DNA from: a virus
DNA: 38,564 nt
Virus genome (UHGV): UHGV-1336581
Direction: 5' to 3' (one strand)
Of this stretch, positions 10,463-32,321 are shown in pieces (the stretch's first letter is position 1; each line of letters begins with the position of its first letter). The notes beneath the pieces are model-generated. The model searched no databases, had not been told where the DNA came from, and saw nothing but the letters and a program-made list of their open reading frames with translations. Made by a program: the position numbers and the translations under genes.

Positions 10463-11113
10463 ATGCATCGTATAGACACGAAAACCGCGCAGAAGGATAA
10501 GTTCGGCGCGGGTAAGAACGGTTTTACCCGTGGTAACCCCCAGACCGGCACGCCTGCCACCGTTCTGGATGATGACTACTTTGACATGTTGCAGGAAGAA
10601 CTTTGTAGCGTTGTTGAGGCATCCGGTGCCAGTCTGGAGAAGGCGCAGCACGACCAGCTGCTTACCGCGCTTCGTGCGCTGCTGTTAAGCCGCAAGAATC
10701 CGTTTGGCGATATCAAATCGGATGGCACCGTGAAAACGGCTCTCGAAAACCTTGGTTTGGGAGAAGCGGCGAAAAGGGATGTAGGCACAGGAGAAAATCA
10801 GATACCGGATATGTCAGCCTGGAAAAGAAATCCGAGTTCTAATCGCTGGAGAAAATTGCCTGATGGAACCATCATTCAAATGGGAATATCAGCATCAGGG
10901 CCATTAGGCTCACCTGTAAATATCACCCTGCCGATATCTTTCAGCAATACCAATTATTGTGTTGTTGCATCGTACGATAATGCACGGTCAGATGTGTCAA
11001 CAATGGTTAGTTTTGCAGCGTTACCTGTTTCACCATCGCAATTTTCCCTGATGTCATCTGTGACTGAGCAAGGAATAAATCCTTTTGCTTACTGGATTGC
11101 TTTTGGAGATTAA
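10463..11113 (+). CDS. Tail fibre protein: constant N-terminal part fused to variable C-terminal segment (current orientation of the invertible region)
   Basis: The ORF crosses the left recombination site near 10741-10766 (...[10 protein letters not shown]...); the part downstream lies inside the invertible segment. Confidence 0.7.
10741..10766. repeat. Invertase crossover site, left (gix/pix-like, inside tail fibre gene)
   Basis: TCTCGAAAACCTTGGTTTGGGAGAA is an imperfect inverted copy of the site at 12636-12661; 14 contiguous bases identical (TTGGTTTGGGAGAA). Confidence 0.65.
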
Positions 11114-11116
11114 TAA

Positions 11117-11536
11117 ATGGACAGATACTTCTATTCACAAAAAGAAAATGGTTTTTTTACCGATTTAAATAAAGCACCTTCAGATGTTGTTGAGATAACC
11201 ACGGATGAATGGCTGTTACTACTGGATGGTCAGGATAATGGCATGAAAATAGTCAGCAATCAGGAGGGATATCCGGTTTTGACAGAGCAACCACCTTTAT
11301 CAAAAGAAAACCTTATTGCATTGGCGGATTTGAAAAAAAGAAAACTTATTAATGAAGCCAACGAGCACATGAACAGCAGACAATGGCCTGGTAAAGCGGC
11401 TATTGGTCGTCTGAAAAGTGAGGAACTGGCGCAATATAATTTGTGGCTGGATTATCTGGACGCACTGGAACTGGTTGATACCTCCAGTGCTCCAGATATT
11501 GAATGGCCTACGCCTCCGGCAGTTCAGGCCAGATGA
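11117..11536 (+). CDS. Tail fibre assembly protein (Tfa, active-orientation copy)
   Basis: C-terminal ...VDTSSAPDIEWPTPP motif typical of Tfa chaperones; directly follows the fibre gene. Confidence 0.7.
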   Translation: MDRYFYSQKENGFFTDLNKAPSDVVEITTDEWLLLLDGQDNGMKIVSNQEGYPVLTEQPPLSKENLIALADLKKRKLINEANEHMNSRQWPGKAAIGRLKSEELAQYNLWLDYLDALELVDTSSAPDIEWPTPPAVQAR

Positions 11537-12113
11537 CATCCGGCGCGGTGCTGGTATCTGTTGCCGTCACCGCGTCAATGTAATCCAGCACAGCGTTAAG
11601 TCTGGTTGTTTCTGCCTGCGTCAGTTTACGTCCGGCCTGTAATTTCAGCTGAATCAGACTAATGGAAGCCATTGCTGCATCAATCAGTGACTGGCGCTGT
11701 GCTTCTGCCGCGTCTACTGCGGCATTATGCTGTGCCTCAGTATCTGTCACCCATTTCTCACCATCCCATTTATCGTATGGCGTTAACGGGACGATAGTTG
11801 TTGTATTTTCAGGGTAATCACCCGGAGTTGTGATTTCTTTTGATTCTCCCGTTTCGGTGTTATAGACAACTTCACCGCGATGGTCTGGCACATATTCCCA
11901 TGAGTTTAAATCTGCCGAACGGCAGATTGCATAACCAGCCTTATGTGTTCCAGGAGCATCTAAACAGGAATATGCAGGGATACCGACACCCACAGCAAGA
12001 TATTCAGTTGATGCAGAAATATACTCCCGTATCTCACTGTCATAGTTATAAACGGTAATCTCTCCTGCCTTTGTGGCAATAAATTTACTATTTAAGATGG
12101 CGTTATACATCAT
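11508..12113 (-). CDS. Tail fibre assembly protein (alternate Tfa inside the invertible segment)
   Basis: C-terminal ...TDTSTAPDVIWPELPEA; 3' end overlaps the plus-strand tfa convergently, as in Gin/Pin/Cin invertible regions. Confidence 0.7.
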   Translation of the reverse strand: MMYNAILNSKFIATKAGEITVYNYDSEIREYISASTEYLAVGVGIPAYSCLDAPGTHKAGYAICRSADLNSWEYVPDHRGEVVYNTETGESKEITTPGDYPENTTTIVPLTPYDKWDGEKWVTDTEAQHNAAVDAAEAQRQSLIDAAMASISLIQLKLQAGRKLTQAETTRLNAVLDYIDAVTATDTSTAPDVIWPELPEA

Positions 12114-12688
12114 GCAGCCCTCACAATGTAATTAAATGAAATATTACGTGGGCGTGTCTCTGCTGCACCGACAATACTGGTACTCAACCCCGTCGCTGTT
12201 CGTTTGTTATTTTTATTTCCTTCAATCAGACAGTTGTAATCATCATTACCAATTAACGAATTAGTGGCATCAATACCGTCCGGGGACAAGGCATTAGTTG
12301 TAGAACTTAAAGTCAGCATCTCGTCTGAACTTGGAAGATTTTTTAATGGTGTTTCATTGCGAGAAATACCCGCGTAAAAAAAGGACTCATGCCTGTGCGC
12401 TTCAAAAGAGTCATCCTGAAGACTTAGCAAGGTACGTCCCGCATCCACTCCACGCCCGTCATCCCAGCCACGAATAAACTCACCACGTAAATCAGGCAAT
12501 TTATTTGTCGGATAAGCCTTTGCCAGTTCCGGGTATTCTTCAGCAGAAAAAGCGGCACCGTTGCATTTCAGCCAGCCTGTTGGCGGAGTGGCGGAAGGCC
12601 ACGGAACAGGCACGCCAACGGGTAATGCCGAACCTTCTCCCAAACCAACGTTTATGAAAATGCAGAAATAACGAGCAAATGGCATCAT
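12110..12688 (-). CDS. Alternate tail fibre C-terminal segment (silent in this orientation)
   Basis: Minus-strand ORF whose 5' end abuts the right recombination site; the GLGEG junction mirrors GLGEA of the expressed fibre. Codons upstream of the crossover site are not a real N-terminus. Confidence 0.6.
   Translation of the reverse strand: MMPFARYFCIFINVGLGEGSALPVGVPVPWPSATPPTGWLKCNGAAFSAEEYPELAKAYPTNKLPDLRGEFIRGWDDGRGVDAGRTLLSLQDDSFEAHRHESFFYAGISRNETPLKNLPSSDEMLTLSSTTNALSPDGIDATNSLIGNDDYNCLIEGNKNNKRTATGLSTSIVGAAETRPRNISFNYIVRAA
12636..12661. repeat. Invertase crossover site, right (gix/pix-like, just upstream of pin)
   Basis: TTCTCCCAAACCAACGTTTATGAAAA; its reverse complement matches the left site; lies immediately 5' of the invertase gene. 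Confidence 0.65.
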
Positions 12689-13269
12689 TCCTGCTTTTGT
12701 CAGGGATATCTACCATGCTTATTGGCTATGTACGTGTGTCAACAAATTACCAGAACACAGATCTACAACGTAATGCGCTGAACTGTGCAGGATGCGAGCT
12801 GATTTTTGAAGACAAGATAAGCGGTACAAAGTCCGAAAGGCCGGGACTGAAAAAACTGCTCAGGACATTATCGGCAGGTGACACGCTGGTGGTCTGGAAA
12901 CTGGACCGACTGGGGCGCAGTATGCGGCATCTTGTCGTGCTGGTGGAGGAGTTGCGCGAACGAGGCATCAACTTTCGTAGTCTGACGGATTCAATTGATA
13001 CCAGTACCCCAATGGGGCGCTTTTTCTTTCATGTGATGGGGGCCCTGGCTGAAATGGAACGAGAACTGATTGTTGAACGAACAAAAGCTGGACTGGAAGC
13101 TGCTCGCGCACAGGGACGAATTGGTGGACGTCGTCCCAAACTTACACCAGAACAATGGGCGCAGGCCGGACGATTAATTGCAGCAGGAATTCCTCGCCAG
13201 AAGGTGGCGATCATCTATGATGTTGGTGTATCGACACTGTATAAGAAGTTTCCGGTCGGAGATAAATGA
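12679..13269 (+). CDS. pin: Serine recombinase, DNA invertase Pin/Gin/Hin family
   Basis: MLIGYVRVSTNYQNTDLQRNAL...GDTLVVWKLDRLGRSM...HTH C-terminus; near-identical to e14 Pin as I recall it. Real start probably the MLIGY Met about 12 codons in. Confidence 0.9.
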   Translation: MASFLLLSGISTMLIGYVRVSTNYQNTDLQRNALNCAGCELIFEDKISGTKSERPGLKKLLRTLSAGDTLVVWKLDRLGRSMRHLVVLVEELRERGINFRSLTDSIDTSTPMGRFFFHVMGALAEMERELIVERTKAGLEAARAQGRIGGRRPKLTPEQWAQAGRLIAAGIPRQKVAIIYDVGVSTLYKKFPVGDK

Positions 13270-13450
13270 AACCGTAGCATGTCGTATGCAAGATCGTGCG
13301 CGGTTGGCTGGTGAATGTTCGATAGTTCGAGCAATTAATAATTTCCAACCGTTATTGATTTTACGTGTTTTTGTATGAGAGGATTTGCACCTTCTGTAAC
13401 CGACCTTCCATGGCGGCACACTACTGTCTCTAGCACTACTATGTGCAAAA
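13267..13450 (+). repeat. Cassette-boundary repeat, copy A (about 180 bp, starts at the pin stop codon)
   Basis: GAAACCGTAGCATGTCGTATGCAAGATCGTGC...GGCTGGTGAA...GATAG...TTCCAACCGTTAT...GATTTT...TGAGAGGATTT...CCATGGC...GTCTCT...CTATGTGC; aligns along its length with copy C. Confidence 0.7.
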
Positions 13451-13519
13451 AGCTGACGTTTCTATTTTTTTGATTAATGCTCAAGTTTATTTTTCAACGT
13501 TAGCAGGAGCTATCTTAAA

Positions 13520-15856
13520 TTAATCAAAAAGGTCATCCTCCCTCAATCCAAGCCACTTTTCGAGATGCATAAGCAGTATTTTCAGGGCTTCTTCATACTC
13601 TGGGAATTCGTTTAGGTTAATCGAGTCAATTCTAGCTTTGGCAACATCTATGCCAATAAAATCGGCAATTGTTTCTTTGTTGAAACTGTTGTGAGGGGTG
13701 GATACCCTGTCACCATATGTGTAGCTGGTACCTCGGTGCATCAAGCGAGAGATCACGGCTGCGAAACCTTGGTTGGTTTGAATTACTTTCATCACCCACT
13801 CACGCGGTTCATCTATTGAATTCGTATAATCTTTCCAGCGATAAAGCTGATATATGAGATTAGGCTCGGTGAGCAGTGTGTTACCGTCTGCTGCGCGGCC
13901 CCTAATCAATCGCAACCATTCAGCCTTCATTTCCGTAATGGTGTTTAGATCTAACGCTGGCTCGAAGACACCGCTATCCCTATTTTCTCGATCGTCTGGA
14001 TCGCTCAGGTGAATAAGGAGCGAGGAGACAGATAACGCTTTAGTTTTACGGAGAGCGTCGAGAGCCAAATCATTTCGAACATCCTCAGGAAGCCGCTTCA
14101 GGAATTTATTTGTCGCTCGCCATGCTGCCACATATGACGGGTCAAAAGCACCATTTTTCGAGCTTGCAAGTTTTTCAGCAAGTATGAACATCCCCGGTAG
14201 CAAAATAGATGCGTTCTCAGTTGGTAATCGATCGACGGATTCGTCGAGCCTGGCTACGAGCGAGTTCAGTAGGCCATCAGCTTCGACGGTAGTGATTTCC
14301 TCATAGAGTTCTCTCTCTGTTGCTGTTGCATCGAGAAAATCAACAAAGCGACGCTCAGACATTTCTCCGATTGTCGTCTGAAGTTCGAAGTAACGAGGAA
14401 AGTAACGTGATGTGCATACTCGTTTCTCCGCCAGCCACTGGAGATGGAAGCCGTCTGCATAATGTGTTCCTCCATATGCCCATTCGAGAGGAGGAAATAA
14501 GTCTTTGAGCGTGTCACGAACGATATCGCGGCGTTTCTCCGGCACGATCTCAAGAAGCTTCTTAGCTGCTTCTTGGTCTAACTTCTGCCGGTTATTAAAT
14601 GAGTAATGTCTTTCTTGGAGAACCAATTCCCGCTCACGGAACAGTGTAGCGTGGAGATCTGGCTCAAAGACCCGGAGTGTCTCAAGAAGTAAGAAATCAA
14701 CAATGTTTACCTCGAATACATTGCCAATAACATGTAGTGGCATATTTATAGCAATAGACGAGATGAGGCGACGTGCATCGCGCATGTTTTTAAGCCAAGG
14801 CTGGATGCAACCAATGTAAGCGTTACCCCAGCGTGTCTGAGAGAACCCGTTTGCCTCGATTGCGTAAGGGTCTGCAATTTTAGCGAGTTCCTCCTCAAAC
14901 ATACGATGCACGAGCGATGCCGGGACTGCAGGAAGATCAAAACTAGCTTGCACGATTTTCTCAAGGAAGGCTCGACCATCACCGTCAGCAACTGGATCGA
15001 GTGCCCTCTCTACGATACTGGTCTGGAACAGTAGCACAAAAACAATGTTTGGCAGATTAGCATTCGCTTTTACTTGACGAAGTAGCATCCTGATCTGCTC
15101 TGGCTCGAGTCGGTCAATGTCGTCGACGAAGACGACCAGCGGACGCTCAAGTTCTCGAAGACGAGCCTCCAGCGATCTGCGTACCTTGTCGAGTGGCTCG
15201 CCACTATGGTCACGCCCGAGATATGTGAGTATGCGTCCAACAAGAGGAATTCCGACTGAGAGTAGTGAAAGAACAGCCGCAACCCCTGCGGCTGTGGGAA
15301 GGTCAAAGCCAATAGCTGACGCGATCGCTACAACGGAAGCATTAGTTAGCACTGTAGAGACTAGGAAGCTTGAACTACCGACCTCTTTAAGAGGTTTGCC
15401 GACCCCTATGAGGATTGCTCCGTAGCGTCGTAGTGCTTCGGCACGGTCAAGCTCAGCCTTCGAATGTTCACCTCTTAGGGAATTTGCTATCTGACCAAAT
15501 AGCGCGCCAGTGATGGCATCACCGTCTCCCCATTGCCATGGATTGAAATCGAGCCAGTTCGCCCCGTTGTTCTTGGCATCGAGCTGTTCGGTAATGAGAT
15601 TTTTTAGTGATGATTTGCCAAAGCCCCATCCTCCTCGGATAGCAAACACTCGGCCTTCGCGCAAACTAAGCTCTGAAAGCACATCAGCTATGCGAGCTGC
15701 AAATTCGGTCCTTCTAAGGCGATCTTCGGATGCTCGCCGAATTGGGGCCTCCGCCCCGATCCCCTCGTCCGGTCGCTCGTTCTTTATCACGTCAGCATTA
15801 GGCTTCGCGCGACGATGAGCGCGCCATGCCGTCAAGCGGAACAATAGCTTATTCAT
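13520..15856 (-). CDS. KAP-family P-loop NTPase with membrane insertion (Tmn-like candidate defence protein)
   Basis: Walker A GGWGFGKSS about 80 aa from the N-terminus, followed by hydrophobic helices inserted in the NTPase domain (VLTNASVVAIASAIGF...VLSLLSVGIPLVGRIL), a KAP hallmark; 778 aa. Confidence 0.7.
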   Translation of the reverse strand: MNKLLFRLTAWRAHRRAKPNADVIKNERPDEGIGAEAPIRRASEDRLRRTEFAARIADVLSELSLREGRVFAIRGGWGFGKSSLKNLITEQLDAKNNGANWLDFNPWQWGDGDAITGALFGQIANSLRGEHSKAELDRAEALRRYGAILIGVGKPLKEVGSSSFLVSTVLTNASVVAIASAIGFDLPTAAGVAAVLSLLSVGIPLVGRILTYLGRDHSGEPLDKVRRSLEARLRELERPLVVFVDDIDRLEPEQIRMLLRQVKANANLPNIVFVLLFQTSIVERALDPVADGDGRAFLEKIVQASFDLPAVPASLVHRMFEEELAKIADPYAIEANGFSQTRWGNAYIGCIQPWLKNMRDARRLISSIAINMPLHVIGNVFEVNIVDFLLLETLRVFEPDLHATLFRERELVLQERHYSFNNRQKLDQEAAKKLLEIVPEKRRDIVRDTLKDLFPPLEWAYGGTHYADGFHLQWLAEKRVCTSRYFPRYFELQTTIGEMSERRFVDFLDATATERELYEEITTVEADGLLNSLVARLDESVDRLPTENASILLPGMFILAEKLASSKNGAFDPSYVAAWRATNKFLKRLPEDVRNDLALDALRKTKALSVSSLLIHLSDPDDRENRDSGVFEPALDLNTITEMKAEWLRLIRGRAADGNTLLTEPNLIYQLYRWKDYTNSIDEPREWVMKVIQTNQGFAAVISRLMHRGTSYTYGDRVSTPHNSFNKETIADFIGIDVAKARIDSINLNEFPEYEEALKILLMHLEKWLGLREDDLFD

Positions 15857-16427
15857 CCCACAACATCTCCAAAAGTATATGTTTCAAGCGTTCTATTGTT
15901 AGAAGCCTCACCGATTGGACTTTGTCTACGACAGCTAACTGAAAACAGCTCGTTGCTGAAATTGCAGGCCAGTATAGCGGTTCTGCCTACTCAACGTGAA
16001 ATGGCTCGTGGGCAACTACATCAACTGAGCGAGAATACTAAGGTGAAACTGGGTGTGTGAATTGGTGCAAGAGAAATGCTTCCCATAATTCAAGATATCC
16101 CAATATAAGTACATTCCGAATGTCTGCTTCATACCTTGAGATATTCGACAAACTTTTTATGGAAGAAAGGCATTTGTGTCTTGTTGGTATATGGATGCTG
16201 TGAAAGAGCAGAATGCCACTTGTTGAGGGAGATAGATGATGCACAGCAAATTAAGCTGATGAAAAAAACAAAAAGCTACATCTTCTGTGGACTTTCATGT
16301 CACCAAGAGTAGCAACTCCCTAGCGTCTCATCACCGTCTGGTTGGTGTCCTGCTGAGACTGCTAACTTCCTGTTTTTTGATGTTGTATTTACACTGTCCA
16401 ATCATGATTGGCGGGCTGGCGGGAGTT

Positions 16428-16465
16428 GAAACCGTAGCACGTCGTATGCAAGATCGTGCTGCGGT
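16428..16465 (+). repeat. Cassette-boundary repeat, copy B (truncated, about 38 bp core)
   Basis: GAAACCGTAGCACGTCGTATGCAAGATCGTGCTGCGG matches the first ~35 bp of copies A and C, then diverges; lies just 3' of the minus-strand GIY-YIG gene. Confidence 0.6.
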
Positions 16466-16486
16466 TTATGTTTATCACTTGAAGAT

Positions 16487-17356
<870 letters not shown>

Positions 17357-17446
17357 CTAACCCTTTGAATTTACATAGCGCAAAAAGATACCTTTCCTCA
17401 TAATGTGAGCTAATTTTATGTTTCGTTTGATGATCGGGTCGGTCTC

Positions 17447-17630
17447 GAAACCCGTAGCCACGTCGTATGCAAGAACGTGCTACGACTGGCTGGTGAACTT
17501 CCGATAGTGCGAGTATTGAATGATTTCCAACTGTTATCGATTTTGCGTATTTTTTGCATGAGAGGATTTTTACCTCCTCCCACCGATCCTCCATGGCTTT
17601 ACGCCAGTGTCTCTGGTCTGCTATGTGCCA
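17447..17630 (+). repeat. Cassette-boundary repeat, copy C (about 180 bp)
   Basis: GAAACCCGTAGCCACGTCGTATGCAAGAACGTGCTACG...GGCTGGTGAAC...GATAG...TTCCAACTGTTAT...TGAGAGGATTT...CCATGGC...GTCTCT...CTATGTGCC; same orientation as copy A. Confidence 0.7.
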
Positions 17631-17676
17631 AGAGCGGACTTTGCAAAATGGGGGTTATTTCAATCAAAACGTAACG

Positions 17677-18621
17677 TCACAACCAGCCGACGCTCTCTCG
17701 CCATTTATAATTAGTAACTTTATCATTTTCGCTTATTTTTTTAGATATAGAGCGCGGCTCTCTTCCTAGATACTCAGATATTTCTGTCGGGGACAAATCA
17801 AAATCGACAAGCATGACTCTAAGTTTTTCCATTTCCTTTAAAGTCCAAGGCTTGCCATAATTTTCATAAAGAGATACCTTATGCTCCCTAATAGTTCGCT
17901 TTCTCTGAGTTTCACTTTCCCTCTGAAAAATCTCGCTTTTAAATTGTGAACGGAACTCTTTACAGAAGTTGTTATCAGTTTTTTTGTTATATAGATTGCT
18001 AAAAATAAGCTGGGATGCCGGGTCTAAATCAGGTGTGTTAATAATGAAAACTTTGACCTTTTCCATATAGGGATATTCAATTTTACCCAATATGCTTAAT
18101 TGCTTTATATTAAAAAAACCTCTCAAATCAAAAGATTTAATGAGCTTTGATTGGATTACACTTTCAATCCTGCTTGCATTTGAATAACAGTACTTTGCCA
18201 TTGGAAGGGCCCATACTACCAGTTGAGGAATATATTTTTCTAATGCAATGCTCTGCCAATCAGTATCAAAGGTTTGGCTTTTTGCTAGCATGTTTTTCGG
18301 CAAATCAGAATACATTGTGGTAGATGCCCATATCTTATAATCATTCGCCAAGGCTTGATAGTATTTTGTGTGGTTATGAATTTTATAAGCTGACATGAAG
18401 CGATAAACGTCTTCGTCGTGACCAGCGTCGTAAATTGTTCGATTTCCTCTAAGATAACCGTCGTAATGTTCGGTTATCCTTCTACCTACATTACAACTTA
18501 CCCCAACGTAAACCACACGACTGAAAAGTCCTTTATGGACAATAAGATAAACTCCGCTACAGCCAGATTTCCTGGCCTCTGATAGAGAACCTAAAAATCT
18601 CCATTCCATAATTAAATCCAT
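17677..18621 (-). CDS. GIY-YIG nuclease domain protein with C-terminal HTH-like region (AT-rich)
   Basis: GVYLIVHKGLFSRVVYVGVSCNVGRRITEH (GIY-YIG-like with R and E); C-terminal WTLKEMEKLRVMLVDFDLSPTEISEYLGREPRSISKKI looks like a helix-turn-helix; visibly AT-rich. Confidence 0.55.
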   Translation of the reverse strand: MDLIMEWRFLGSLSEARKSGCSGVYLIVHKGLFSRVVYVGVSCNVGRRITEHYDGYLRGNRTIYDAGHDEDVYRFMSAYKIHNHTKYYQALANDYKIWASTTMYSDLPKNMLAKSQTFDTDWQSIALEKYIPQLVVWALPMAKYCYSNASRIESVIQSKLIKSFDLRGFFNIKQLSILGKIEYPYMEKVKVFIINTPDLDPASQLIFSNLYNKKTDNNFCKEFRSQFKSEIFQRESETQRKRTIREHKVSLYENYGKPWTLKEMEKLRVMLVDFDLSPTEISEYLGREPRSISKKISENDKVTNYKWRESVGWL

Positions 18622-19061
18622 TATTATTGCTACTTTTTTTGTTTATCATTATTTTCGTGAAACTTCAACAATTTTATCCAAAAGCTAAGGGCAAAGACTT
18701 ATATAATTATACTTGTCATCGTTAGCGATTATATAGAGTAGTGGCGCTGACCTGCTCCCTAGTGATTCACACAGAATGCTGTTAGTAATGTCCGTTCCTC
18801 GCTCATAACAGACATAAACTTCAGTTATGGCATAAAGGTATGCATGCTGGGTGGGGAAAGTATGAAGGAAAAGAAGACTGCTGCGCCGTTTGTCGTCACG
18901 TTTATCTTCATTGGCTATGCAAGTCGTAATACAGGGTGGGACAAAACTGAGACACATAAGGCCTCGCAATGGCTTGCAAGGCTTTACATGTTTTGATGTG
19001 GTGGGACGTGTGAGCGCAGTGTTGATGGGATAATACTTTGAATTAGAAGCGGATTCTTATA

Positions 19062-19107
19062 ATTCGTAATGCGAAGGTCGTAGGTTCGACTCCTATTATC
19101 GGCACCA
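19062..19107 (+). other. 3' fragment of a tRNA-Thr gene (about 46 nt, ends ...GGTTCGACTCCTATTATCGGCACCA); attachment-site core
   Basis: T-arm GTAGG/TTCGACT/CCTAT, acceptor 3' strand and CCA present, anticodon-loop CGTAATG partly present, but no 5' acceptor strand (GCCGATA) upstream, so not an intact tRNA. Match to thrW is from memory. Confidence 0.6.
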
Positions 19108-19220
19108 TTCTAACGTCTCCCCAAGTCTACTCAAGTATTTAAAAACCTCTTATAATCCGCATGTTAGCGCCCCTTTTAGTCTTTTGACGTCTACTTAAGT
19201 ACCCCAAAATCTACAGTCAA

Positions 19221-19273: not shown

Positions 19274-20488
19274 GTGAAACTCAATGCCCGTCAAATAGAC
19301 ACTGCCAAGCCAAAAGAGAAGGCTTACAAGCTGGCTGATGGTGGTGGTCTGTATCTCCTGGTAAAACCTAGTGGAGGAAAATACTGGCGCTTTAAATATC
19401 GTGTAGCTGGTAAAGAGAAGCTGTTAGCACTAGGTGTGTATCCTGAAGTTACCTTGGCTGATGCTCGTGCAAAACGTGAAGAAGCTAAAAGGGGTATCGC
19501 TGGGGGTATCGATCCGATGGAAGCGAAACGAGAGGAAAAGATTGCCCGGGAAACGCAGTTAAACAATACCTTCAAAGATATTGCCCTTGAGTGGCACAGC
19601 AGCAAATTAAAAAAATGGTCTGCTGGTTATGCTTCAGATATCCTCGAAGCCTTCAACAAAGATGTGTTCCCTTACATTGGCAAAAAACCAATTGCCGAAA
19701 TCAAACCACTTGAACTTCTGAATGTGCTGCGACGCATCGAGGGGCGCGGTGCTACAGAAAAAGCCAAAAAAGTGAGGCAGCGGTGCGGGGAAGTTTTCCG
19801 CTATGCAATAGTCACTGGTCGCGCAGAGTATAACCCTGCCCCAGATCTTACTAGCGCGATGCAAGGCCATGAATCTAATCATTATCCTTTCCTCACAGCC
19901 AAAGAATTGCCTGATTTTTTCAAGGCATTGTCCAGTTACTCAGGAAGTGCATTGGTTGTTATGGCGGCTCGTCTACTGATTATCACTGGTTTGCGAACTG
20001 GCGAACTGCGCGGTGCATTATGGGATGAAATCGATCTCAACAAGGCTATCTGGGAGATACCTGCTTCACGGATGAAAATGCGTCGCCCTCATGTGGTGCC
20101 TTTGTCTAAGCAGGCTCTTTCTCTTATTGGGCAGATTAAAGAATTAACTGGTAATTATCCGCTTATGTTTCCCGGCCGTAATGATCCAAGGAAAACAATG
20201 AGCGAGGCTAGCATAAACCAAGTATTTAAACGCATCGGCTATAACGGAAAGGTTACTGGTCATGGATTCCGGCACACCATGAGCACGATTTTACATGAGC
20301 AGGGCTATAACACCGCGTGGATAGAAACGCAGCTTGCACACGTTGATAAGAACTCAATTCGTGGCACGTACAATCATGCGCAATATCTGGACGGGCGGCG
20401 CGAGATGCTCCAGTGGTACGCCGACTATATGGATTCGCTCGAACATGGCGGTAACGTGGTGCATGGCAAGTTCGGAAAATGTGGATGA
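19274..20488 (+). CDS. int: Tyrosine integrase, P4-type (N-terminal arm-binding domain)
   Basis: LNARQIDTAKPKEKAYKLADGGGLYLLVKPSGGKYWRFKYRVAGKEKLLALGVYPEVTLADARAKREEAK is the P4-integrase N-terminal signature; C-terminal HxxR...Y catalytic region (GHGFRHTMSTIL...HV...RGTYNH); GTG start, adjacent to the tRNA fragment. Confidence 0.9.
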   Translation: MKLNARQIDTAKPKEKAYKLADGGGLYLLVKPSGGKYWRFKYRVAGKEKLLALGVYPEVTLADARAKREEAKRGIAGGIDPMEAKREEKIARETQLNNTFKDIALEWHSSKLKKWSAGYASDILEAFNKDVFPYIGKKPIAEIKPLELLNVLRRIEGRGATEKAKKVRQRCGEVFRYAIVTGRAEYNPAPDLTSAMQGHESNHYPFLTAKELPDFFKALSSYSGSALVVMAARLLIITGLRTGELRGALWDEIDLNKAIWEIPASRMKMRRPHVVPLSKQALSLIGQIKELTGNYPLMFPGRNDPRKTMSEASINQVFKRIGYNGKVTGHGFRHTMSTILHEQGYNTAWIETQLAHVDKNSIRGTYNHAQYLDGRREMLQWYADYMDSLEHGGNVVHGKFGKCG

Positions 20489-20610
20489 CTGGTTGCGTAT
20501 ACAGTAGTAGACTTTGAGCGACGAAAGAAAAGGCTGTGTCTAGGGTCGCTCCCGAAAATCCGTACACCTCGACGGACTGGTACAGCCACTACAGTAGAGG
20601 ACGCTGAGGT

Positions 20611-21414
20611 GTGCGTATGATTGATATTCATGCCGAATTAAACGAATACAAAAAAGATTTTATTTCTTTACGTGAATTTCTTGAGGTCGTGCTTAAGGTC
20701 GCTGGTGATGATTATGATGTTTCAGATGTCATAACTTGGATACTCAGGAGAATAAGCGGAGAACATATCCGCCTGTACACAGTAAATGAATTTAAGCTGT
20801 TGGAATCTTTTTGTAACCCGTATCGGGATGAATTTGATTATGATGTTCTTTATAGAAATCTGAATGCGGTTCGGAAACGTGGTTGTTTACCTGGTGAGAG
20901 GGATGAAAATGGTTTTCTGGTGTCCGGTTATTGGGAAGATCCCGAATTTGAGAACATTGGATTTATAAGGGGTGAAATTTTCGCAATTTTTCCCGATGTC
21001 CTTGACGCGTTAACGAAGCTGGAAGGCGCTAACTCTTCTGAAAATGACGAGGCACAAGGACGCGATATTGAAAAGAAAGAGTTGCGTACAGAGGATGATT
21101 TATTATCCCAAATCGCAATGCTGGAAAAAGAAAACGCAGAGTTAAGGGCAAGGATAGAGCAGTTAGAGCAAGAGCGCCCGATACACTTATATAAATACTG
21201 GGATAAAGACCCATTAGCTAAGGCTATTGAGATTAGAAACAGAGAGTGGGCCAATTACGATCCAGAAAATGATTTTGCCACCAGGGGAAATCAAGAAGCG
21301 ATAACCAGGGAGCTTAAGCAGTGGGGGGCAAGTAATGCACTTGCAACGCTCATAGAGAGGACTGCCTGCCCTATTAACCGAGACAACAGCCAAAAGAACG
21401 CAAAGCCGGATTAA
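20611..21414 (+). CDS. Hypothetical protein (coiled-coil segment)
   Basis: 267-codon ORF between int and alpA with a heptad-like stretch (LSQIAMLEKENAELRARIEQLEQE); no family recognised. Confidence 0.5.
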   Translation: MRMIDIHAELNEYKKDFISLREFLEVVLKVAGDDYDVSDVITWILRRISGEHIRLYTVNEFKLLESFCNPYRDEFDYDVLYRNLNAVRKRGCLPGERDENGFLVSGYWEDPEFENIGFIRGEIFAIFPDVLDALTKLEGANSSENDEAQGRDIEKKELRTEDDLLSQIAMLEKENAELRARIEQLEQERPIHLYKYWDKDPLAKAIEIRNREWANYDPENDFATRGNQEAITRELKQWGASNALATLIERTACPINRDNSQKNAKPD

Positions 21415-21428
21415 CGCACCATACCGCA

Positions 21429-21572
21429 TACCCTGAGGGTGATTTACTGTTACCCTGAGGGTATTTTTTTATCTTCCCCGTCAATTTTACCATCACCCTT
21501 AGGGTAGATTTCCTCCCGATTACCATCACCCTTAGGGTTAATTTCCTTCCGGTAACCATTAGGCCTGAGGGT
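21429..21572. promoter_or_regulatory. Five copies of interrupted palindrome (A)CCCT(G/T)AGGG(T) upstream of alpA; candidate operator array
   Basis: TACCCTGAGGGT at about 21429 and 21451, CACCCTTAGGGT at about 21494 and 21527, GCCTGAGGGT at about 21562. Confidence 0.45.
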
Positions 21573-21641
21573 ATGAAAATATTCGTTATTTCTGTGCCAT
21601 GATTACCTCGTCAAATTGAGTAGACGTTATGAGGTAAATAT

Positions 21642-21839
21642 ATGTCAAATACGCTTATTCGTTTAACAGAAGTTCAGCGTAGAACTGGATATAGCAAGGC
21701 ATGGATTTATCACCTTATGGGGCAAGGTAAATTTCCTGCATCAGTTAAAATTGGCTCGCGAGCTATTGCTTTCGTTGAGAGTGAAATTGACGAGTGGATT
21801 AATCAGCGTATTGCGGAATCACGCGGAACAGCTACCTGA
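21642..21839 (+). CDS. alpA: AlpA-family transcriptional regulator
   Basis: 65-aa HTH protein, LIRLTEVQRRTGYSKAWIYHLMGQGKFPASVKIGSRAIAFVESEIDEWI matches the AlpA/prophage CP4-57 regulator family. Confidence 0.85.
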   Translation: MSNTLIRLTEVQRRTGYSKAWIYHLMGQGKFPASVKIGSRAIAFVESEIDEWINQRIAESRGTAT

Positions 21840-21916
21840 TTAAATGGCTACGGGGCTATTGCCCCCAGCTATCCACCAGCAAATAAAAGTAACTTAATTC
21901 GATAGCAGGAGTTTTT

Positions 21917-22717
21917 ATGAAATTTCCAAAAACGCCCGTACAGGGGCGGGGCTTCGTTCGGCCTGAAAACCAGAATCTGCAAAATTTCGGCGAAATTATC
22001 CCGATTATTTCCGGCGTTATTGGCGGGAGTGAAACCACTATTGTTAGCGCCAGAGCGTTACATAAGGCGTTAGGTGTAGGGCGCGTTTTCCGTTCGTGGA
22101 TCAAGGGGCGCATTGAAGAATACGGGTTCACGGAAGGCGTGGATTATGAGGTTGTTGAATATTTGAGCCGACCCGATCCGGTGAGCGCAAAATCTCGCCA
22201 GCAAACCGCTCTTGAGTACATCATCACAGTGAACATGGCGAAAGAACTGGCGATGGTCGAACGTACCGAACAGGGCCGCGCCGTTCGCCAGTACTTTATC
22301 AAATGCGAGGAGGAGCTACACAAGGTTGCGCCTGTTCGTTCCGCAGCGTTACGCCGGGAACTGAAAGCCCGTATCACAGTTGCCAGCTACTTTAAGCCAA
22401 TGTGTGCCGCGCTGGAGGCGTACCGGGCTGAACTGGGTAAAAACACACTCCAGCACCACTACACCACGGAAGCGAGCATGCTGGCGCGTATCGTGCTGGG
22501 TGGCATGACTGCAAAACAGTGGGCACTGGCGAACGGCATTACAGGCGAACCACGCGACCACATGAGCACGTTGCAGCTTGAGCACCTTTCTTACCTTGAG
22601 CAGAGCAATATCACGCTGATTGAGTTAGGCCAGGACTACCACCAGCGGAAGGCTGAATTAATTCGTCTTTCGCAGCGTTGGTTAGCCCGTCGCATGGAGG
22701 AAAACAGCCATGTGTAA
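21917..22717 (+). CDS. Phage antirepressor-like DNA-binding protein (Ant/Rha/KilA-N-type N-terminal domain)
   Basis: N-terminal TIVSARALHKALGVGRVFRSWIKGRIEEYGFTEGVDYEV resembles antirepressor-type DNA-binding domains; domain assignment is tentative. Confidence 0.45.
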   Translation: MKFPKTPVQGRGFVRPENQNLQNFGEIIPIISGVIGGSETTIVSARALHKALGVGRVFRSWIKGRIEEYGFTEGVDYEVVEYLSRPDPVSAKSRQQTALEYIITVNMAKELAMVERTEQGRAVRQYFIKCEEELHKVAPVRSAALRRELKARITVASYFKPMCAALEAYRAELGKNTLQHHYTTEASMLARIVLGGMTAKQWALANGITGEPRDHMSTLQLEHLSYLEQSNITLIELGQDYHQRKAELIRLSQRWLARRMEENSHV

Positions 22718-23430
22718 CGCTCTGACCGTTACAAAAAGAGAAAGCGCCCCGTTGCCGGAGCGCCTTTGTGAACGAATAGCCTACTGCGCCATATTGCTTA
22801 CTGTCTACGAGGCAGATTATAGCGTTGTGGTCGCACAGAGTGAAGGCGCTGATCACCGTTACTACAGCACGCCAGAAATGCAGAATATTTTGCTGCAAAA
22901 TGTCGTTGATCACACTGTCCGAAAAGCAAAAAATTTTGCTGGTGGCGCGACTGATGCGATTTTGTCAGGTCGCCAGGTGCTGATCAATCTGATGTCTGAT
23001 TTCGTTCTGGATAAAACAAAGGCGACCGCAGAGGGCCGCCAGTGGGAAAGCTACATACTTGAACGCATCGCCAACAATGCCAGATTTGCGGCTGGTGGGC
23101 AATGTGTCAGCTTTGCACCAATGACTCTATGTTTAACTGAGGGTCATTATGGTGAATATGCTGGCTTGCTGGTGGGCTATTCCTGCTCTTTAACATCGCC
23201 ATGCCGCGATGTTTTCCAGGTATGCGATCCCATTTTTGTGCGCCTGTACTCTTTAAGGAATTTCTCAAGGATAAACGCACAGGGCGCGAATCTGTTTGAC
23301 TCATGCTCGTACGCTATCTTTCTGCGCTGTCTTTTCCGTGCCGGTGATGGTGTATTGGTTGATTCTTTGTTGGTCATGGCGCTGCCCTGTAAAACGATGC
23401 ACCGTAGTCCCTCACACCACGGCGCTGGTG
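22710..23430 (+). CDS. Hypothetical protein, probably disrupted (5' part of a 485-codon open frame)
   Basis: First ~150 codons look protein-like; downstream the same frame becomes Cys/Ser/Arg-rich and runs through a convergent minus-strand gene and a divergent promoter region without a stop. End coordinate is arbitrary. Confidence 0.3.
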
Positions 23431-23434
23431 ATGG

Positions 23435-23614
23435 TTACTCCTGTTCTTTGGCCTTGCGGCGCTGGCGGCGTTTGATCTCGCCTTTTGCAGCAGTAACTAA
23501 AAAACCAGCGGTACTTTCGCCAGGTTCTTTAAGTTGCTCAATATCATCCATTACTTCATGTGGGATTCTGACAGTTGTCATTTGTGATTTTGCGTTCTTT
23601 GCACCAGTTGCCAT
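23435..23614 (-). CDS. Small ribbon-helix-helix-like DNA-binding protein
   Basis: MATGAKNAKSQMTTVRIPHEVMDDIEQLKEPGESTAGFLVTAAKGEIKRRQRRKAKEQE has a beta-strand/helix pattern like CopG/Arc; divergent from the gene starting at 23802. Confidence 0.4.
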   Translation of the reverse strand: MATGAKNAKSQMTTVRIPHEVMDDIEQLKEPGESTAGFLVTAAKGEIKRRQRRKAKEQE

Positions 23615-23801
23615 TTCTGGATCTCCTAAAAATTGGTGTATGTCAGTATACGCAAAAAAAATGATAAAAAAAGGCTTGAAGTGTATTTCACCAGTAAGTA
23701 AATTAAAAAGCAAAGGTGAAATACACCTAAAAGAGCAACGCCCCGCAGTGCTCGCAACACATGCAGGGCGTCTAACCAAACCGTTAAATGAGGTAACGAT
23801 T

Positions 23802-24167
23802 ATGGCTGGAACACAGCATACTCAAACTCACCCTAAATTTATATACACCTTCCTGGCGGTGCACCGTGATTGCATGGCTGACGGTAAAAACACTGTACAC
23901 GTAGCCGCCGATACGCTGGTTGATGCCTGCAAGATGCTCAATGACATGGGCTATATCTCGGCAACATGGAAAGGGCGCGAAGAAAACACGCTGTTTATTC
24001 AGAAATGCGAAAACAATTTTATATGGCGTTTTATCGCCCTGAGTACGGCACAACCGCGCGTGATTCACATCGAGGCCACCAGCGAACAGGAAGCACGCCA
24101 GCAATCTCCTGATGGCTGCGTGATGGTATTCACTGCCCGTATTCGCCAGGAGGTGGAGCATGTGTAA
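23802..24167 (+). CDS. Hypothetical protein
   Basis: Internal ATG of the long open frame, preceded by GAGGTAACGATT (RBS-like) and a divergent AT-rich promoter region; 122 codons; stop overlaps next start. Confidence 0.5.
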   Translation: MAGTQHTQTHPKFIYTFLAVHRDCMADGKNTVHVAADTLVDACKMLNDMGYISATWKGREENTLFIQKCENNFIWRFIALSTAQPRVIHIEATSEQEARQQSPDGCVMVFTARIRQEVEHV

Positions 24168-24384
24168 TGCAACATGGCCTGATGCAGCGGTAGACACTAT
24201 CAAAACGCTGATGGATTCACTTATTGAGATTTCTGCTATCGCTGGTGTGGCGCATAAACACGCAGCCAGAGAATCAGAATGCATCTTCCATTATTTAGCA
24301 TTTGTGCAGCTAAAAGCCGATCAGGCACTGGATAAGGCCGGAAAAATTATCATGGCTGATGTGCAGGAGGTGCACTATGCATAA
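24160..24384 (+). CDS. Hypothetical small protein
   Basis: 74 codons, start overlaps upstream stop, stop overlaps downstream start. Confidence 0.45.
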   Translation: MCNATWPDAAVDTIKTLMDSLIEISAIAGVAHKHAARESECIFHYLAFVQLKADQALDKAGKIIMADVQEVHYA

Positions 24385-24742
24385 CCTGTCAATTTCTGAC
24401 CTTAACAGCATTCAGTTTGACGAGAAATTTACCGGGCAGTTGCTGGTCAATGTGGAGAACGGGCGCATAGTGCGTAATTATCACCTGCCGGATGGTGCAA
24501 TTGCCGGAAGCGTTGAAGCATTGCTGGAACTGGCGGAACGTGCGCGACTGATTAAGCCGTCAACGAGTCATCACGATGATGATCTGCATTTTACCGGACG
24601 TATGGTGAGTCACTACGAAAACGGCGTCGAGGTATCCTGCGAACGGCTGCGTGATGATTGCTGTTTCGGCACACTGCCGGAATTTATCGAGTTGCTGACC
24701 AGTTGCGGTTATCAGGTCATTCAGGGGGGTAAACATGCGTGA
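24377..24742 (+). CDS. Hypothetical protein (paralogue of the 24961 gene)
   Basis: ATG preceded by AGGAGG; N-terminus MHNLSISDLNSIQFDEKFTGQLLVNVENGRIV resembles the 24961 protein. Confidence 0.5.
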   Translation: MHNLSISDLNSIQFDEKFTGQLLVNVENGRIVRNYHLPDGAIAGSVEALLELAERARLIKPSTSHHDDDLHFTGRMVSHYENGVEVSCERLRDDCCFGTLPEFIELLTSCGYQVIQGGKHA

Positions 24743-24968
24743 TGATCGTTTTAATTCCCTGAAACGGGAATTTGATGGCGCACAGGAAGATGCAGCGGGC
24801 GCATTGTTGAGCGTTGCTGACATGATGAAAGCTGCATATTTTCTTATCAATACCAGTGGCTACAAGTCAGAGGGTGAAATGATTCTTAGTATTGCGTCAG
24901 ACTATGCGGAATATGTGGCAGAGACGCGTTACAGAAGAAAATTCACGGAGGATGTAAGCCATGCATAA
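24735..24968 (+). CDS. Hypothetical small protein
   Basis: 77 codons, overlapping stops and starts in the operon. Confidence 0.45.
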   Translation: MRDDRFNSLKREFDGAQEDAAGALLSVADMMKAAYFLINTSGYKSEGEMILSIASDYAEYVAETRYRRKFTEDVSHA

Positions 24969-25161
24969 TCATGAAGCGCATGTACCCGTAGTGCTTAATG
25001 TGCCAGATGATTTCACCGGACGCGTACTGGTTTACCTAGATAAAGGGAAAGTGAAATCACAATGCCGACTGAAAAGTAATGAGATTGTTGGTTCTCCTGA
25101 ATTTTTTTCTGAACTTTGTATTCGTGCGGAAATAAAACCGGAACTGCTGACAGGAAAATAA
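24961..25161 (+). CDS. Hypothetical small protein (paralogue of the 24377 gene N-terminus)
   Basis: MHNHEAHVPVVLNVPDDFTGRVLVYLDKGKV shows the same MHN...DxFTGxxLVxxxxGxV pattern as the 24377 protein. Confidence 0.45.
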   Translation: MHNHEAHVPVVLNVPDDFTGRVLVYLDKGKVKSQCRLKSNEIVGSPEFFSELCIRAEIKPELLTGK

Positions 25162-25165
25162 AACC

Positions 25166-25456
25166 ATGAAAAAGAAAAATTCTGGCTTTACTGCCAGCGG
25201 TCTCTCTCGGCCTGAAATCAGACACGGAGATATTTACCGCGACACCAGACGTGGGGGACGAGTGGTTATTCGTCACGTTACGCCAGGCAATATCACCTAC
25301 CGCCGTGAGGCTTACGAATATGACTGCGTAATGCCGCGCCGTCAGTTTGAGCGTGATTTTATTCTGGTTGAAAACAAACAACAGGCGGTGGCGAGACGTG
25401 CAGCCACGAATATTAAAAAAATCCGGGCAATGTTGGTTGCGGGAGGTAAGAAGTGA
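25166..25456 (+). CDS. Hypothetical small basic protein
   Basis: 96 codons; stop overlaps the start of the helicase-like gene. Confidence 0.45.
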   Translation: MKKKNSGFTASGLSRPEIRHGDIYRDTRRGGRVVIRHVTPGNITYRREAYEYDCVMPRRQFERDFILVENKQQAVARRAATNIKKIRAMLVAGGKK

Positions 25457-26865: not shown

Positions 26866-27266
26866 AAAGTGAAGCGTAAAAGTGAGGGGGGAAGGGAATA
26901 TTTAAAAATCATCCCTGTTTTCCTCACTTTCTCACCTGTATATAGATCAAAAAATGAGGAATTAAAAAAACATTGCAAAACAACATATTACAACAATAAA
27001 GAAAACGACTGAGGAGCAGAACAAGAATAACAAAAAGTGAGGAACAAAAGTGAGGAATGGTGAGTTAATAGAAATGAGGTAATAAAAATAACAGGTAGGT
27101 TAAAAAACATACCATGCAAGATATTAACTAAAACTTAACTATTTACCTCACTTTTGCGTATATATAAGGATTAAAAAGTGAGTGCTTAAAAATATATTTA
27201 AAATCATATTGTTATTAACTTCATAAATTCTCACTGCGCAGCAGGTGAGGAATTAAAAAATCAGGA
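26866..27266. repeat. AT-rich iteron region (many copies of AGTGAGG / TGAGGAA in both orientations); candidate replication origin
   Basis: Repeated AAAGTGAGG(G/A/T), GGTGAGGAATT, AATGAGGAATT, and inverted CCTCACTTT within about 400 bp directly downstream of the helicase-like gene. Confidence 0.4.
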
Positions 27267-28633: not shown

Positions 28634-28651
28634 CAAGGACGTTACCATCCC

Positions 28652-32310: not shown

Positions 32311-32321
32311 ACAATCCGTGC

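Follow-up and report, generated by a model that had tools for sequence, protein, structure and literature searches.

The repeats that separate the genes of a prophage cargo stack are copies of a very common prophage sequence of 100-200 bp that is part of a phage attachment site. We analyzed a stretch of 38,564 nucleotides (the virus genome UHGV-1336581, hereafter the window) in which three copies of this element alternate with three cargo genes downstream of the invertase gene pin. We consider it quite likely that the stack was built by recombination at relic copies of the attachment site, with the hairpin of the element probably marking transcript 3' ends and with no integron involved. Overall, this is a largely known process, in which related phages swap and stack accessory genes at the edges of the element.

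The window contains three direct copies of the element, as an earlier note on this DNA had claimed, and they were recovered by a repeat search, blastn, and a profile search. The element has three parts: a hairpin (H), a centre of ~65 nt (C), and a tail of ~100 nt (T). Copies across the family are 38, ~116, or ~200 nt long. The features of the region are as follows.

10747-12653, no strand assigned: tail-fibre segment invertible by Pin, with inverted crossover sites of 20 nt at 10747-10766 and 12634-12653
12679-13269, + strand: pin, serine DNA invertase, last gene of the structural/late block (Resolvase 1e-50 and HTH_7)
13267-13466, + strand: c1, a whole copy (13254-13466 by profile search)
13267-13305, + strand: hairpin of c1, beginning on the pin stop codon
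13306-13466, + strand: centre (to about 13369) and tail (to 13466) of c1; profile columns 2-217
13520-15856, - strand: cargo gene 1, PifA-like KAP-family P-loop NTPase (KAP_NTPase 4e-41; PADLOC PifA 7e-79, near full length)
16325-16426, + strand: X', a remnant equal to the right ~100 nt of a ~190-nt unit, from comparison with other loci
16427-16466, + strand: c2, a hairpin-only copy with a 13-bp stem and then TTTATGTTTAT on the + strand (16415-16466 by profile search)
16487-17311, - strand: cargo gene 2, PD-T4-3, LEM-3-like GIY-YIG nuclease (PADLOC PD-T4-3 7e-140)
17448-17649, + strand: c3, a full copy (17440-17649 by profile search) comprising H (17448-17485), C (up to about 17551), and T (up to 17649)
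17677-18621, - strand: cargo gene 3, ORF314, with a weak N-terminal GIY-YIG signal only
18780-18855, - strand: T', a fourth copy (diverged, inverted, and partial, of the distal tail) at the right edge of the variable 'slot 3'
18937-19109, + strand: right end of the prophage (attR), made up of an SfIV-type attP arm and a 3' portion of the tRNA-Thr gene thrW (19062-19109)
19274-20488, + strand: P4-type tyrosine integrase of a second element in tandem, outside the cargo stack

The repeat search gave a core common to the three copies (13267-13299, 16427-16459, and 17448-17480) and two longer blocks shared by c1 and c3 (68 nt at 82% and 64 nt at 77%). By blastn, c1 was 77% identical to c3 over 195 nt (E 1e-35) and 95% identical to c2 over 40 nt. 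The H+C block is whole in c1 and c3, and c2 retains the hairpin alone. The first copy does begin at the pin stop codon, whose TGA (13267-13269) is the first triplet of c1, and each copy lies 3' of a minus-strand cargo gene as described, at a spacing of 21-54 nt: 54 nt from c1 to the KAP stop (13520), 21 nt from c2 to the GIY-YIG stop (16487), and 28 nt from c3 to the ORF314 stop (17677). All three copies are on the + strand, and all three cargo genes share the minus orientation. At other loci the X' unit starts with a strong terminator and finishes with 28 nt identical to the 3' end of ssrA; in the window the ssrA-like stretch (16399-16426) is degenerate. An ssrA-type att fragment adjoins some copies of the element.

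The stack is carried by what is, from its gene content and ends, an SfV-like prophage that integrates at thrW. The tail genes are ~97% identical to those of SfIV/SfV, and 18937-19109 matches the SfIV attP region at 97% over 173 nt. There is no complete tRNA in the window, the thrW piece being a 3' fragment. In Sf phages, including SfIV, gtrABC is found in the slot taken here by the cargo. The second element to the right has an int-alpA RNA at 20533-20600. On the left, pin is annotated pinE in an identical locus (PGAP start at 12715). Its crossover sites form an inverted repeat that is 95% complementary, with tail-fibre and Caudo_TAP genes on both strands of the segment between them, and two contigs that are identical apart from this segment (L156 vs L157) carry it in opposite orientations. 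We rejected the Pin recombination site as an identity for the element: the sites at 10747-10766 and 12634-12653 (TTCTCCCAAACCAACGTTT) have only AAACC in common with the hairpin.

The element is not confined to this genome. Direct searches found homologues in 5392 of 5426 complete E. coli genomes, with a median of 3 and up to 9 places per genome, and in 180 phage records, among them phage lambda (24169-24339). The element is also in Stx phages and in prophages of Citrobacter, Kluyvera, and Raoultella, and the H+C block is found more widely in prophages, across several genera, than at the chromosomal locus ykgJ-ecpE. With few exceptions, copies share a single orientation and position: they follow pin or tfa immediately or lie at ykgJ-ecpE. 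In lambda, two copies flank ea47 in the layout tfa, short hairpin, ea47, long copy; a related prophage with the same left flank has tfa, long copy, and Avs2. The repeat thus borders variable cargo consistently, downstream of pin or tfa, in both E. coli and lambda, the association that the earlier note had proposed for pin.

We consider it very improbable that the element is a non-autonomous mobile repeat (MITE, REP/BIME, ERIC, or IS remnant) spread by a transposase. Genomes do contain many copies, and one cargo gene does lie between an inverted pair of partial tails. However, the near-uniform orientation and the restriction to pin, tfa, and ykgJ-ecpE argue against it, as do the lack of terminal inverted repeats or target duplications at the unit ends and of any associated transposase. 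By inspection the element is also unlike the REP and ERIC consensus sequences, and it does not correspond to any known IS or REP element.

The hairpin and centre together are the identity block of an attachment site, as judged by comparing loci. This H+C block is ~105 nt long and extends from GAAACCG... to ...CCGATTTTAC. In a four-way comparison, assembled across separate loci and not from a single phage-host pair, attP, attB, attL, and attR align on one identity block with flanks exchanged reciprocally. We observed all four combinations of left flank (pin or ykgJ) and right flank (F or E) directly.

attP type: pin, block, F-flank, int (loci L075 and L123)
attB type: ykgJ, block, E-flank (K-12, L063, and L112)
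attL type: ykgJ, block, F, int (L046 and L090)
attR type: pin, block, E (L062, L068, and L109)

A P4-type integrase of 397 aa lies 84-101 nt from the block in six loci (L034, L046, L049, L075, L090, and L131), and the 46-nt motif of the attP arm at the right end of the prophage is present after the block at attP-type loci too. The chromosomal partner, attB, is the ykgJ-ecpE spacer, which in K-12 carries the block at 3986-4088 of locus L001. Hairpin variants travel with the left flank in these comparisons, which places the crossover on the right-hand side of the hairpin. Based on these alignments, we conclude that H+C serves as the identity block for P4-type tyrosine integrases, with attB at ykgJ-ecpE, and that the ~100-nt tail is one among many alternative right flanks. 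The earlier note had suggested that the core could be a recombination site or an RNA 3' structure. The core is indeed a recombination-related sequence with a conserved hairpin, but the crossover is to the right of that hairpin and not within it. Because the prophage in the window integrates at thrW, the block here is a relic or secondary att site, and the gene content of the window includes no cognate integrase beside its copies.

From its published description and its homology to ykgJ-ecpE, the block appears to correspond to 'attB-in-PP_2', a 96-bp att homologous to ykgJ/ecpE that is used by lambda-like phages integrating into prophages (Nakamura et al. 2021, PLoS Pathog, PMC8112680). In the literature on ea47/ea31 and prophage hotspots, we found no description of the element beyond that of Nakamura et al.

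These properties of the block weigh against the integron-like organisation claimed in the earlier note, which did not hold. In its general form, the idea is that cis-mobilisable cassettes use the hairpin as a folded recombination site: a recombinase supplied in trans would excise single-gene modules as circles and place them at a resident hairpin, so that every insertion adds a further hairpin. We regard this as distinctly unlikely, even though single-gene modules are bounded by hairpins in the window and in lambda (ea47), all copies and cargo genes keep one orientation, the fold itself is selected (see below), and the KAP module is bracketed by direct repeats of 40 nt, 95% identical and each with a rare AAGAT loop, like a duplicated target. 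No IntI-type integrase, attI, or Pc is beside the array; the nearest tyrosine integrase (19274), of the P4 type, comes from the adjacent island. The att site that contains the repeat is of the ordinary tyrosine-integrase kind, repeat length varies (38, 116, or 200 nt), a module can comprise several genes, and the crossover made by the known integrase falls rightward of the hairpin. Inspection of the copies found no R''/L''-L'/R' boxes (RYYYAAC...GTTRRRY), and Pin has unrelated crossover sites.

There is a related reading, to which we attach a similarly small probability, in which the block is a docking site that passes integrase-less defence modules between prophages, with P4-type integrases acting in trans. 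The modules would then be small circles that contain either a single block or a hairpin alone, integron-like in function without being an integron.

Cargo changes at fixed junctions around the element. At least nine unrelated right flanks, aligned directly, all diverge right after GATTTTAC; other cargo boundaries are at the hairpin edges and the end of the tail. The insertion point of DinI/UmuD-like and EAL modules is precisely the junction of block and tail, and in five strains the slot-3 cargo is swapped, with limits at 17638-17647 and 18785-18791. The common allele is the 'empty' site (pin, H, PD-T4-3), and the window represents the 'filled' site; the exact KAP protein was found only in this same arrangement, on 14 contigs. 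Among related prophages, content varies between pin and the same right end: in other E. coli strains the alternatives are restriction enzymes, methylase and restriction enzyme pairs, retron Ec67, and AbiTii, and further cargo there includes an AAA ATPase, an ImmA/HTH/BRO-N module, an S1 peptidase, and flxA. Some of these modules are multi-gene.

Two of the three cargo genes in the window match known defence genes. Direct matches identify them as PifA-like and PD-T4-3; a PGAP homologue of the latter is 257 aa and corresponds to 16487-17260. Defence activity has been reported for PD-T4-3 (PMC12409345). The third gene, ORF314, had been labelled a second GIY-YIG nuclease, a label that we withdraw: its Pfam match is sub-threshold (E 0.017, 15.8 bits vs a cut-off of 22.6), and its comparison with the first GIY-YIG protein gave no similarity. 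The varied cargo across strains, together with the two defence genes here, bears out the proposal that this position is a defence and cargo hotspot.

Selection acts on the fold of the hairpin and not only on its sequence, as indicated by covariation among copies. The imperfect inverted repeat that had been noticed in the core is real: as RNA, c2 and c3 fold into stable hairpins (-23.6 kcal/mol, z -4.5, and -20.8 kcal/mol, z -3.3, respectively), and c1 is degraded (-15.4 kcal/mol, z -1.5), with one mismatch and one deletion. The c1 loop is the rare AAGAT variant found in both hairpins flanking the KAP module. RNAalifold on the first hairpin alignment, which included flanks, gave no structure, and pairing was instead counted against a named structure. 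Of the cells, 84.7% were paired vs 78.5% in shuffles, with 0 of 500 shuffles reaching 84.7%; double changes occurred in 10 of 12 pairs, and the covariation score was 0.204 vs at most 0.107 for slid controls. RNAalifold recovered the hairpin on trimmed and on long alignments. Compensatory pairs were confined to it; RNAalifold also predicted pairs in the centre and tail, but no compensatory changes supported these. Folding and covariation of the core thus point directly to a conserved hairpin.

The hairpin probably marks transcript 3' ends, and we infer a terminator role for it. Of the three copies, c2 has a U-tract behind it on the + strand, c1 has one on the - strand, and c3 has none. Across the family, plus-strand U-tracts occur in short copies only, and minus-strand U-tracts occur in only about one-third of unique hairpins, those after the stem belonging to pin- or tfa-adjacent copies. 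The loop (11-13 nt) is unusually long for an intrinsic terminator, and a simple terminator scan flagged none of the hairpins, in part owing to its loop limit of 8 nt. Consensus promoter and terminator scans did no better than on shuffles, and promoter-like matches upstream of KAP were not more common than in shuffled sequence. There is also a sub-threshold match between the hairpin and the one at the 3' terminus of CssrB, a Shigella sRNA (Rfam RF02799); when matches were taken at the E-value threshold, no other Rfam family appeared. We rejected membership in that family (24-26 bits vs a gathering threshold of 76), the 3' hairpin alone being alignable, and no Rfam family reached its gathering score at the element.

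A purely regulatory role, in which each gene carries a terminator or 3'-UTR of one family, or an sRNA such as CssrB, and the element had no part in gene arrival, would account for the covariation, the partial CssrB match, the U-tracts in short and in pin/tfa-adjacent copies, and the position of a copy 21-54 nt from the stop of each minus-strand cargo gene. We nevertheless consider it unlikely. About two-thirds of unique hairpins have no U-tract, C and T are conserved without covariation-supported structure, no match to an Rfam family is at gathering score, and a terminator alone does not explain the reciprocal exchange of att flanks or the fixed points at which flanks change.

Conservation of the centre and tail might also reflect a small protein, fragments of which PGAP calls 'capsid protein'. 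An open frame on the + strand would give a peptide (VLRLAGELPIVRVLNDFQLL...) that looks conserved among c3, lambda, and numerous further copies; databases contain hypothetical ORFs of 43-104 aa from here, some named 'capsid' or 'nucleocapsid', and lambda differs from c3 by roughly 9 synonymous to 5 non-synonymous changes. However, among 128 unique copies substitutions were even over the three codon positions and none of the six frames differed from the others in its ratio of synonymous to non-synonymous changes. Indels of 1 nt (c1) and stops a little way upstream interrupt the frames, and there is no longer homologue. We give this explanation almost no credence.

Based on the att comparison, the junctions, and the distribution, we infer that recombination at copies of the element built the stack. 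The element sits between the last late gene (pin or tfa) and an accessory-gene slot beside attP, and modules from different phages, each with its own copy at the left end, would be joined at those copies. In the simplest history, the starting layout would have been the common one (pin, H, PD-T4-3, HCT, cargo), and a 3.16-kb segment (C-T, the PifA-like gene, and X') would then have been gained at the hairpin, leaving a hairpin on each side. Joining may have occurred by homologous exchange between prophages, by integrase-mediated integration with deletion or aberrant excision, or by both. A crossover at GATTTTAC leaves a different product from hairpin-only duplications such as c2 and the short copy in lambda, which therefore need a second process. 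The shared AAGAT loops are not predicted by a single crossover with a foreign donor, and later gene conversion or a related donor must be assumed. The hairpin probably insulates pin from the convergent, leftward-transcribed cargo genes.

If this account is correct, a relic att site, and not conserved genes, is the fixed joint at which E. coli prophages exchange and stack cargo, including defence genes, effectors, SOS genes, and similar functions. The block ending in GATTTTAC, together with the hairpin, would then be a simple sequence handle with which to locate cargo slots in prophages and discover new defence genes. It would also extend the 'prophage-in-prophage' att idea from STEC effector loci to commensal prophages and lambda, account for the spurious PGAP 'capsid protein' fragments at these loci, and predict that the hairpin insulates the late operon from cargo expressed in the lysogen.

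The closest known system is attB-in-PP_2, which shares with the element its homology to ykgJ-ecpE, its position at the cargo end of lambda-like prophages, its use as an att by other phages, and its link to exchangeable accessory loci (PMC8112680). That work concerned T3SS-effector loci in EPEC/STEC and did not include the hairpin, the tail, the copies in the lambda b region, or the stacking of defence genes in one prophage; it inferred a chromosomal origin, whereas the block here is more widespread in prophages. The serotype-converting Shigella phages SfV, SfII, SfIV, and SfI resemble the host prophage in the tail module (~97%), in the thrW attP arm and core (97%), and in having minus-strand cargo between tail fibres and attP. 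They differ in carrying gtrABC, and SfIV has no copy of the element, whereas the phage in the window has pin, three copies, and defence genes. Integron attC sites are likewise imperfect inverted repeats selected for folding, placed between single-gene units in one orientation. Here, in contrast, there is no IntI, attI, Pc, or R/L box, repeat length varies, the known crossover is outside the hairpin, and the cargo genes probably have their own promoters.

Morons, including those of the lambda b region described by Hendrix, Juhala, and colleagues, are independently transcribed accessory genes that usually have their own terminator. Insertion between tail-fibre genes and attP, presence or absence among relatives, and hairpin ends are all seen here, and lambda ea47, ea31, and ea59 occupy the same slot and orientation as the cargo in the window; the difference is that module boundaries here reuse one homologous sequence family with fixed junctions and not unrelated terminators. 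In the CIME/ICE model of Streptococcus thermophilus, elements accrete in tandem by site-specific integration beside a resident element. The resulting arrays of integrase-less modules separated by att copies resemble the stack, although homologous exchange between prophages explains the present data equally well. Finally, P2-like prophages and P4-like satellites reportedly contain defence hotspots (work of Rousset et al.), in which, as here, variable defence genes occupy a fixed prophage position with conserved flanks. Those hotspots are in another phage family and their flanks are core genes, whereas the flank here is an att-derived non-coding repeat.

The window contains three copies of a repeat, each next to a minus-strand gene. 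The earlier note had described these copies from the sequence alone, and they were borne out by a repeat search and by a profile search with a profile made from long copies of the element. The repeat search found a three-copy core starting at 13267, 16427 and 17448, and two longer blocks that the first and third copies have in common. The first copy is 77% identical to the third over 195 nt and 95% identical to the second over 40 nt. Its first base falls on the stop codon of pin, the serine DNA invertase gene, and every copy lies on the 3' side of a minus-strand gene, at a gap of 21-54 nt (three copies, three genes).

13254-13466, plus strand, first copy (c1; profile search)
16415-16466, plus strand, second copy, hairpin only (c2; profile search)
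17440-17649, plus strand, third copy (c3; profile search)
18780-18855, minus strand, diverged inverted copy of the distal tail (T')

Of the three genes, the KAP NTPase matches the PADLOC PifA model nearly end to end (7e-79), and the LEM-3-like GIY-YIG protein is PD-T4-3 (PADLOC, 7e-140), a single-gene defence validated experimentally against T-even phages (PMC12409345). In ORF314 the GIY-YIG signal is sub-threshold. Upstream of the PifA-like gene, 15857-16324 comprises about 470 bp without ORFs; its minus strand has three weak promoter-like matches.

The element has a hairpin, a centre and a tail with fixed junctions. The 173 copies compared (128 of them unique) were drawn from the window, from 16 annotated loci and from 120 IMG/VR loci; 102 are hairpin plus centre (hereafter the block; profile columns about 15-119), 31 are full copies including the tail, and 20 are hairpin only. 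Four boundaries recur: the two feet of the hairpin (the right one at about column 55), the centre end (about 118) and the tail end (about 215). At least nine unrelated right flanks all diverge directly past ...CCGATTTTAC, and in several phages a DinI-like and UmuD-like pair, or an EAL-domain gene, sits exactly at the centre/tail joint. The element does not behave like a transposable repeat, and a codon test showed no coding signal, so we rejected both identities. PGAP places 81-nt "capsid protein" pseudogene fragments within the element (L004 3136-3216; about 17470-17550 in c3), and deposited short ORFs from it are named "capsid" or "nucleocapsid protein". Given the codon test, these annotations are likely artefacts, spread through thousands of genomes.

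The block aligns across four types of locus that differ in their flanks, the right flank being one of two alternatives (F or E).

attP: pin, block, F-flank, then a 397-aa P4-type integrase within about 90 nt (L075, L123)
attB: ykgJ, block, E-flank (K-12, L063, L112)
attL: ykgJ, block, F-flank, integrase (L046, L090)
attR: pin, block, E-flank (L062, L068, L109)

A P4-type integrase adjoins the block in six loci. These alignments show that the block is an attachment site. It matches by description the 96-bp "attB-in-PP_2" (published as figures), a prophage-borne att sequence that shares homology with the ykgJ/ecpE spacer and serves lambda-like phages as an integration target (Nakamura et al. 2021, PMC8112680). 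The hairpin variant goes with the left flank in every case, so the crossover must fall on the hairpin's right-hand side; the most plausible position is the GATTTTAC boundary, at which every flank switches. An integron-like organisation, as the earlier note had proposed, does not agree with this crossover position and was rejected. A Pin site was also rejected as the identity of the element.

The block is a relic or secondary site in the window's phage, and not its own att, because the phage has a thrW-type attP arm and core: the stretch 18937-19109 matches the attP arm of SfIV together with the thrW 3' core at 97% identity. The tail genes are about 97% identical to those of SfIV, SfV, SfII and SfI, Shigella serotype-converting phages that integrate at thrW. 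ARAGORN found no whole tRNA in the window, as an attR fragment would predict. A third, ssrA-type att fragment is present besides the ykgJ-ecpE and thrW types. Many full copies are preceded by a unit of about 190 nt (L007 5595-5788) that opens with a strong bidirectional terminator (AAAAAAGCCCGCATAAGCGGGCTTTTTT) and closes with 28 nt that match the ssrA (tmRNA) 3' end exactly. The unit is thus an att fragment of the ssrA type that abuts the hairpin. The somewhat degenerate last 100 nt or so of this unit lie left of c2, at 16325-16426.

The tail-fibre segment invertible by Pin (10747-12653) is flanked by 20-nt inverted sites and is oppositely oriented in two otherwise identical contigs from different samples (L156, L157); Pin is therefore active in the window's lineage. 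A second integrative element (19274-38564) lies in tandem at the thrW fragment, with a P4-type integrase, an int-alpA RNA (Rfam) at 20533-20600, genes for an AntA antirepressor, an AAA_25 protein, an SDH-type protease and a ProQ/FinO protein, and many ORFs without a Pfam match. This island is absent from strains in which the cargo end is fused directly to chromosomal paoD-paoC, near ykgJ (L008 10235-11610, L010 8815-10193), junctions suggesting that deletions have occurred between the prophage and the chromosome close by.

Cargo after c3 varies by strain. In the window's locus family, homology ends at 17638-17647 (the tail end) and restarts at 18785-18791 (T'). The slot holds ORF314, a restriction enzyme, retron Ec67, flxA, an S1 peptidase, an AAA ATPase, or a methylase with a restriction enzyme. 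These results support the earlier claim of a defence hotspot with a recurring flank. The c3 tail and T' bracket ORF314, and the same pair brackets the slot's cargo in other strains.

The stack could have grown by recombination within the hairpin. The common allele reads pin, hairpin, PD-T4-3, full copy, cargo. The window and 14 other contigs have an extra 3.16 kb (centre and tail, the PifA-like gene with 570 bp upstream of it, and the remnant of the 190-nt unit) with a hairpin at either end, and recombination within the hairpin would yield exactly this gain. The donor might have been a circle, or a second prophage with the remnant and a hairpin behind a PifA module. Both flanking hairpins have a rare AAGAT loop, found elsewhere only in pin-adjacent short copies; such twin loops require that the donor was related, that gene conversion followed, or that the process duplicates its target. 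Candidate mechanisms are homologous exchange between phages that reside in one cell or infect it together; integration by an integrase into relic att copies, with a later deletion; and aberrant excision taking a neighbour's cargo plus a hybrid att. An ecpE-side flank does occur inside phages, and is the residue expected of such a lambda-bio-like event. The sequence data are compatible with all three.

The hairpin is conserved as a structure. In an alignment of 64 distinct hairpins, with the structure named beforehand, 84.7% of cells were paired, versus 78.5% in shuffles (0 of 500 attained the observed value), 10 of 12 pairs had both-sided changes, and the covariation score was 0.204, versus at most 0.107 in slid controls. 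RNAalifold gave no structure on the alignment including flanks; it regained the hairpin once the sequences were trimmed, and also on full-length copies, in which compensatory pairs fell only within the hairpin. The c2 and c3 hairpins fold far below shuffled controls, and c1 is decayed. The hairpin aligns to the 3' terminal hairpin of CssrB, a Shigella sRNA (Rfam), below threshold, a hint that transcripts can end there. No Rfam family reached its gathering score, and we rejected membership of a known one. Hairpin-only copies have a U-tract after the stem on the plus strand, pin- and tfa-adjacent copies have one on the minus strand, and about two thirds of unique copies lack one. A role in helping to define transcript ends is plausible.

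The element is widespread in E. coli. A 194-nt query found homologues in 5392 of 5426 complete genomes (median three places per genome) and in 180 phage records, among them those of Stx phages and lambda. One of the K-12 copies is in the ykgJ-ecpE spacer. In a one-genome-per-species scan the genera with the element were Escherichia, Citrobacter (several species), Kluyvera and Raoultella, and each occurrence was in a prophage context. Three low-coverage contigs of 262-401 bp with the element (L146, L148, L150) are filed under Alkalicoccobacillus, Lysobacter and Chryseobacterium, and one encodes a YkgJ 100% identical to that of K-12; these are probably contamination by E. coli (K-12) or lambda.

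We found no earlier description of the covarying hairpin, the fixed positions of the junctions, the pair of copies on either side of lambda ea47, or ykgJ-ecpE-, ssrA- and thrW-type att fragments together in one cargo region. The lambda copies are:

L002 1404-1446 (about lambda 22572-22614), hairpin-only copy, 15 nt past the tfa stop (profile search)
L002 2987-3191 (about lambda 24155-24359), full copy, between ea47 and ea31

The lambda layout is thus tfa, hairpin, ea47 (minus strand), full copy, then ea31 and ea59, with ea47 bracketed by the two copies, between whose hairpins the differences are compensatory (C-G to A-T). A related prophage has tfa, the identical 17-nt linker, a long copy and then Avs2, and is therefore an "empty" site with respect to ea47. 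The order tfa, hairpin, ea47, full copy is the same as pin, hairpin, PD-T4-3 (minus strand), full copy in the window. Phage phi458 (pin, full copy, one minus-strand gene, T', thrW attP) has the window's layout with one cargo, and SfIV carries minus-strand gtrA, gtrB and gtrIV in the equivalent slot, from tail fibres to attP. Known biology accounts for most of the element: prophage att sites, morons beside attP, and the cargo slot of Sf phages.
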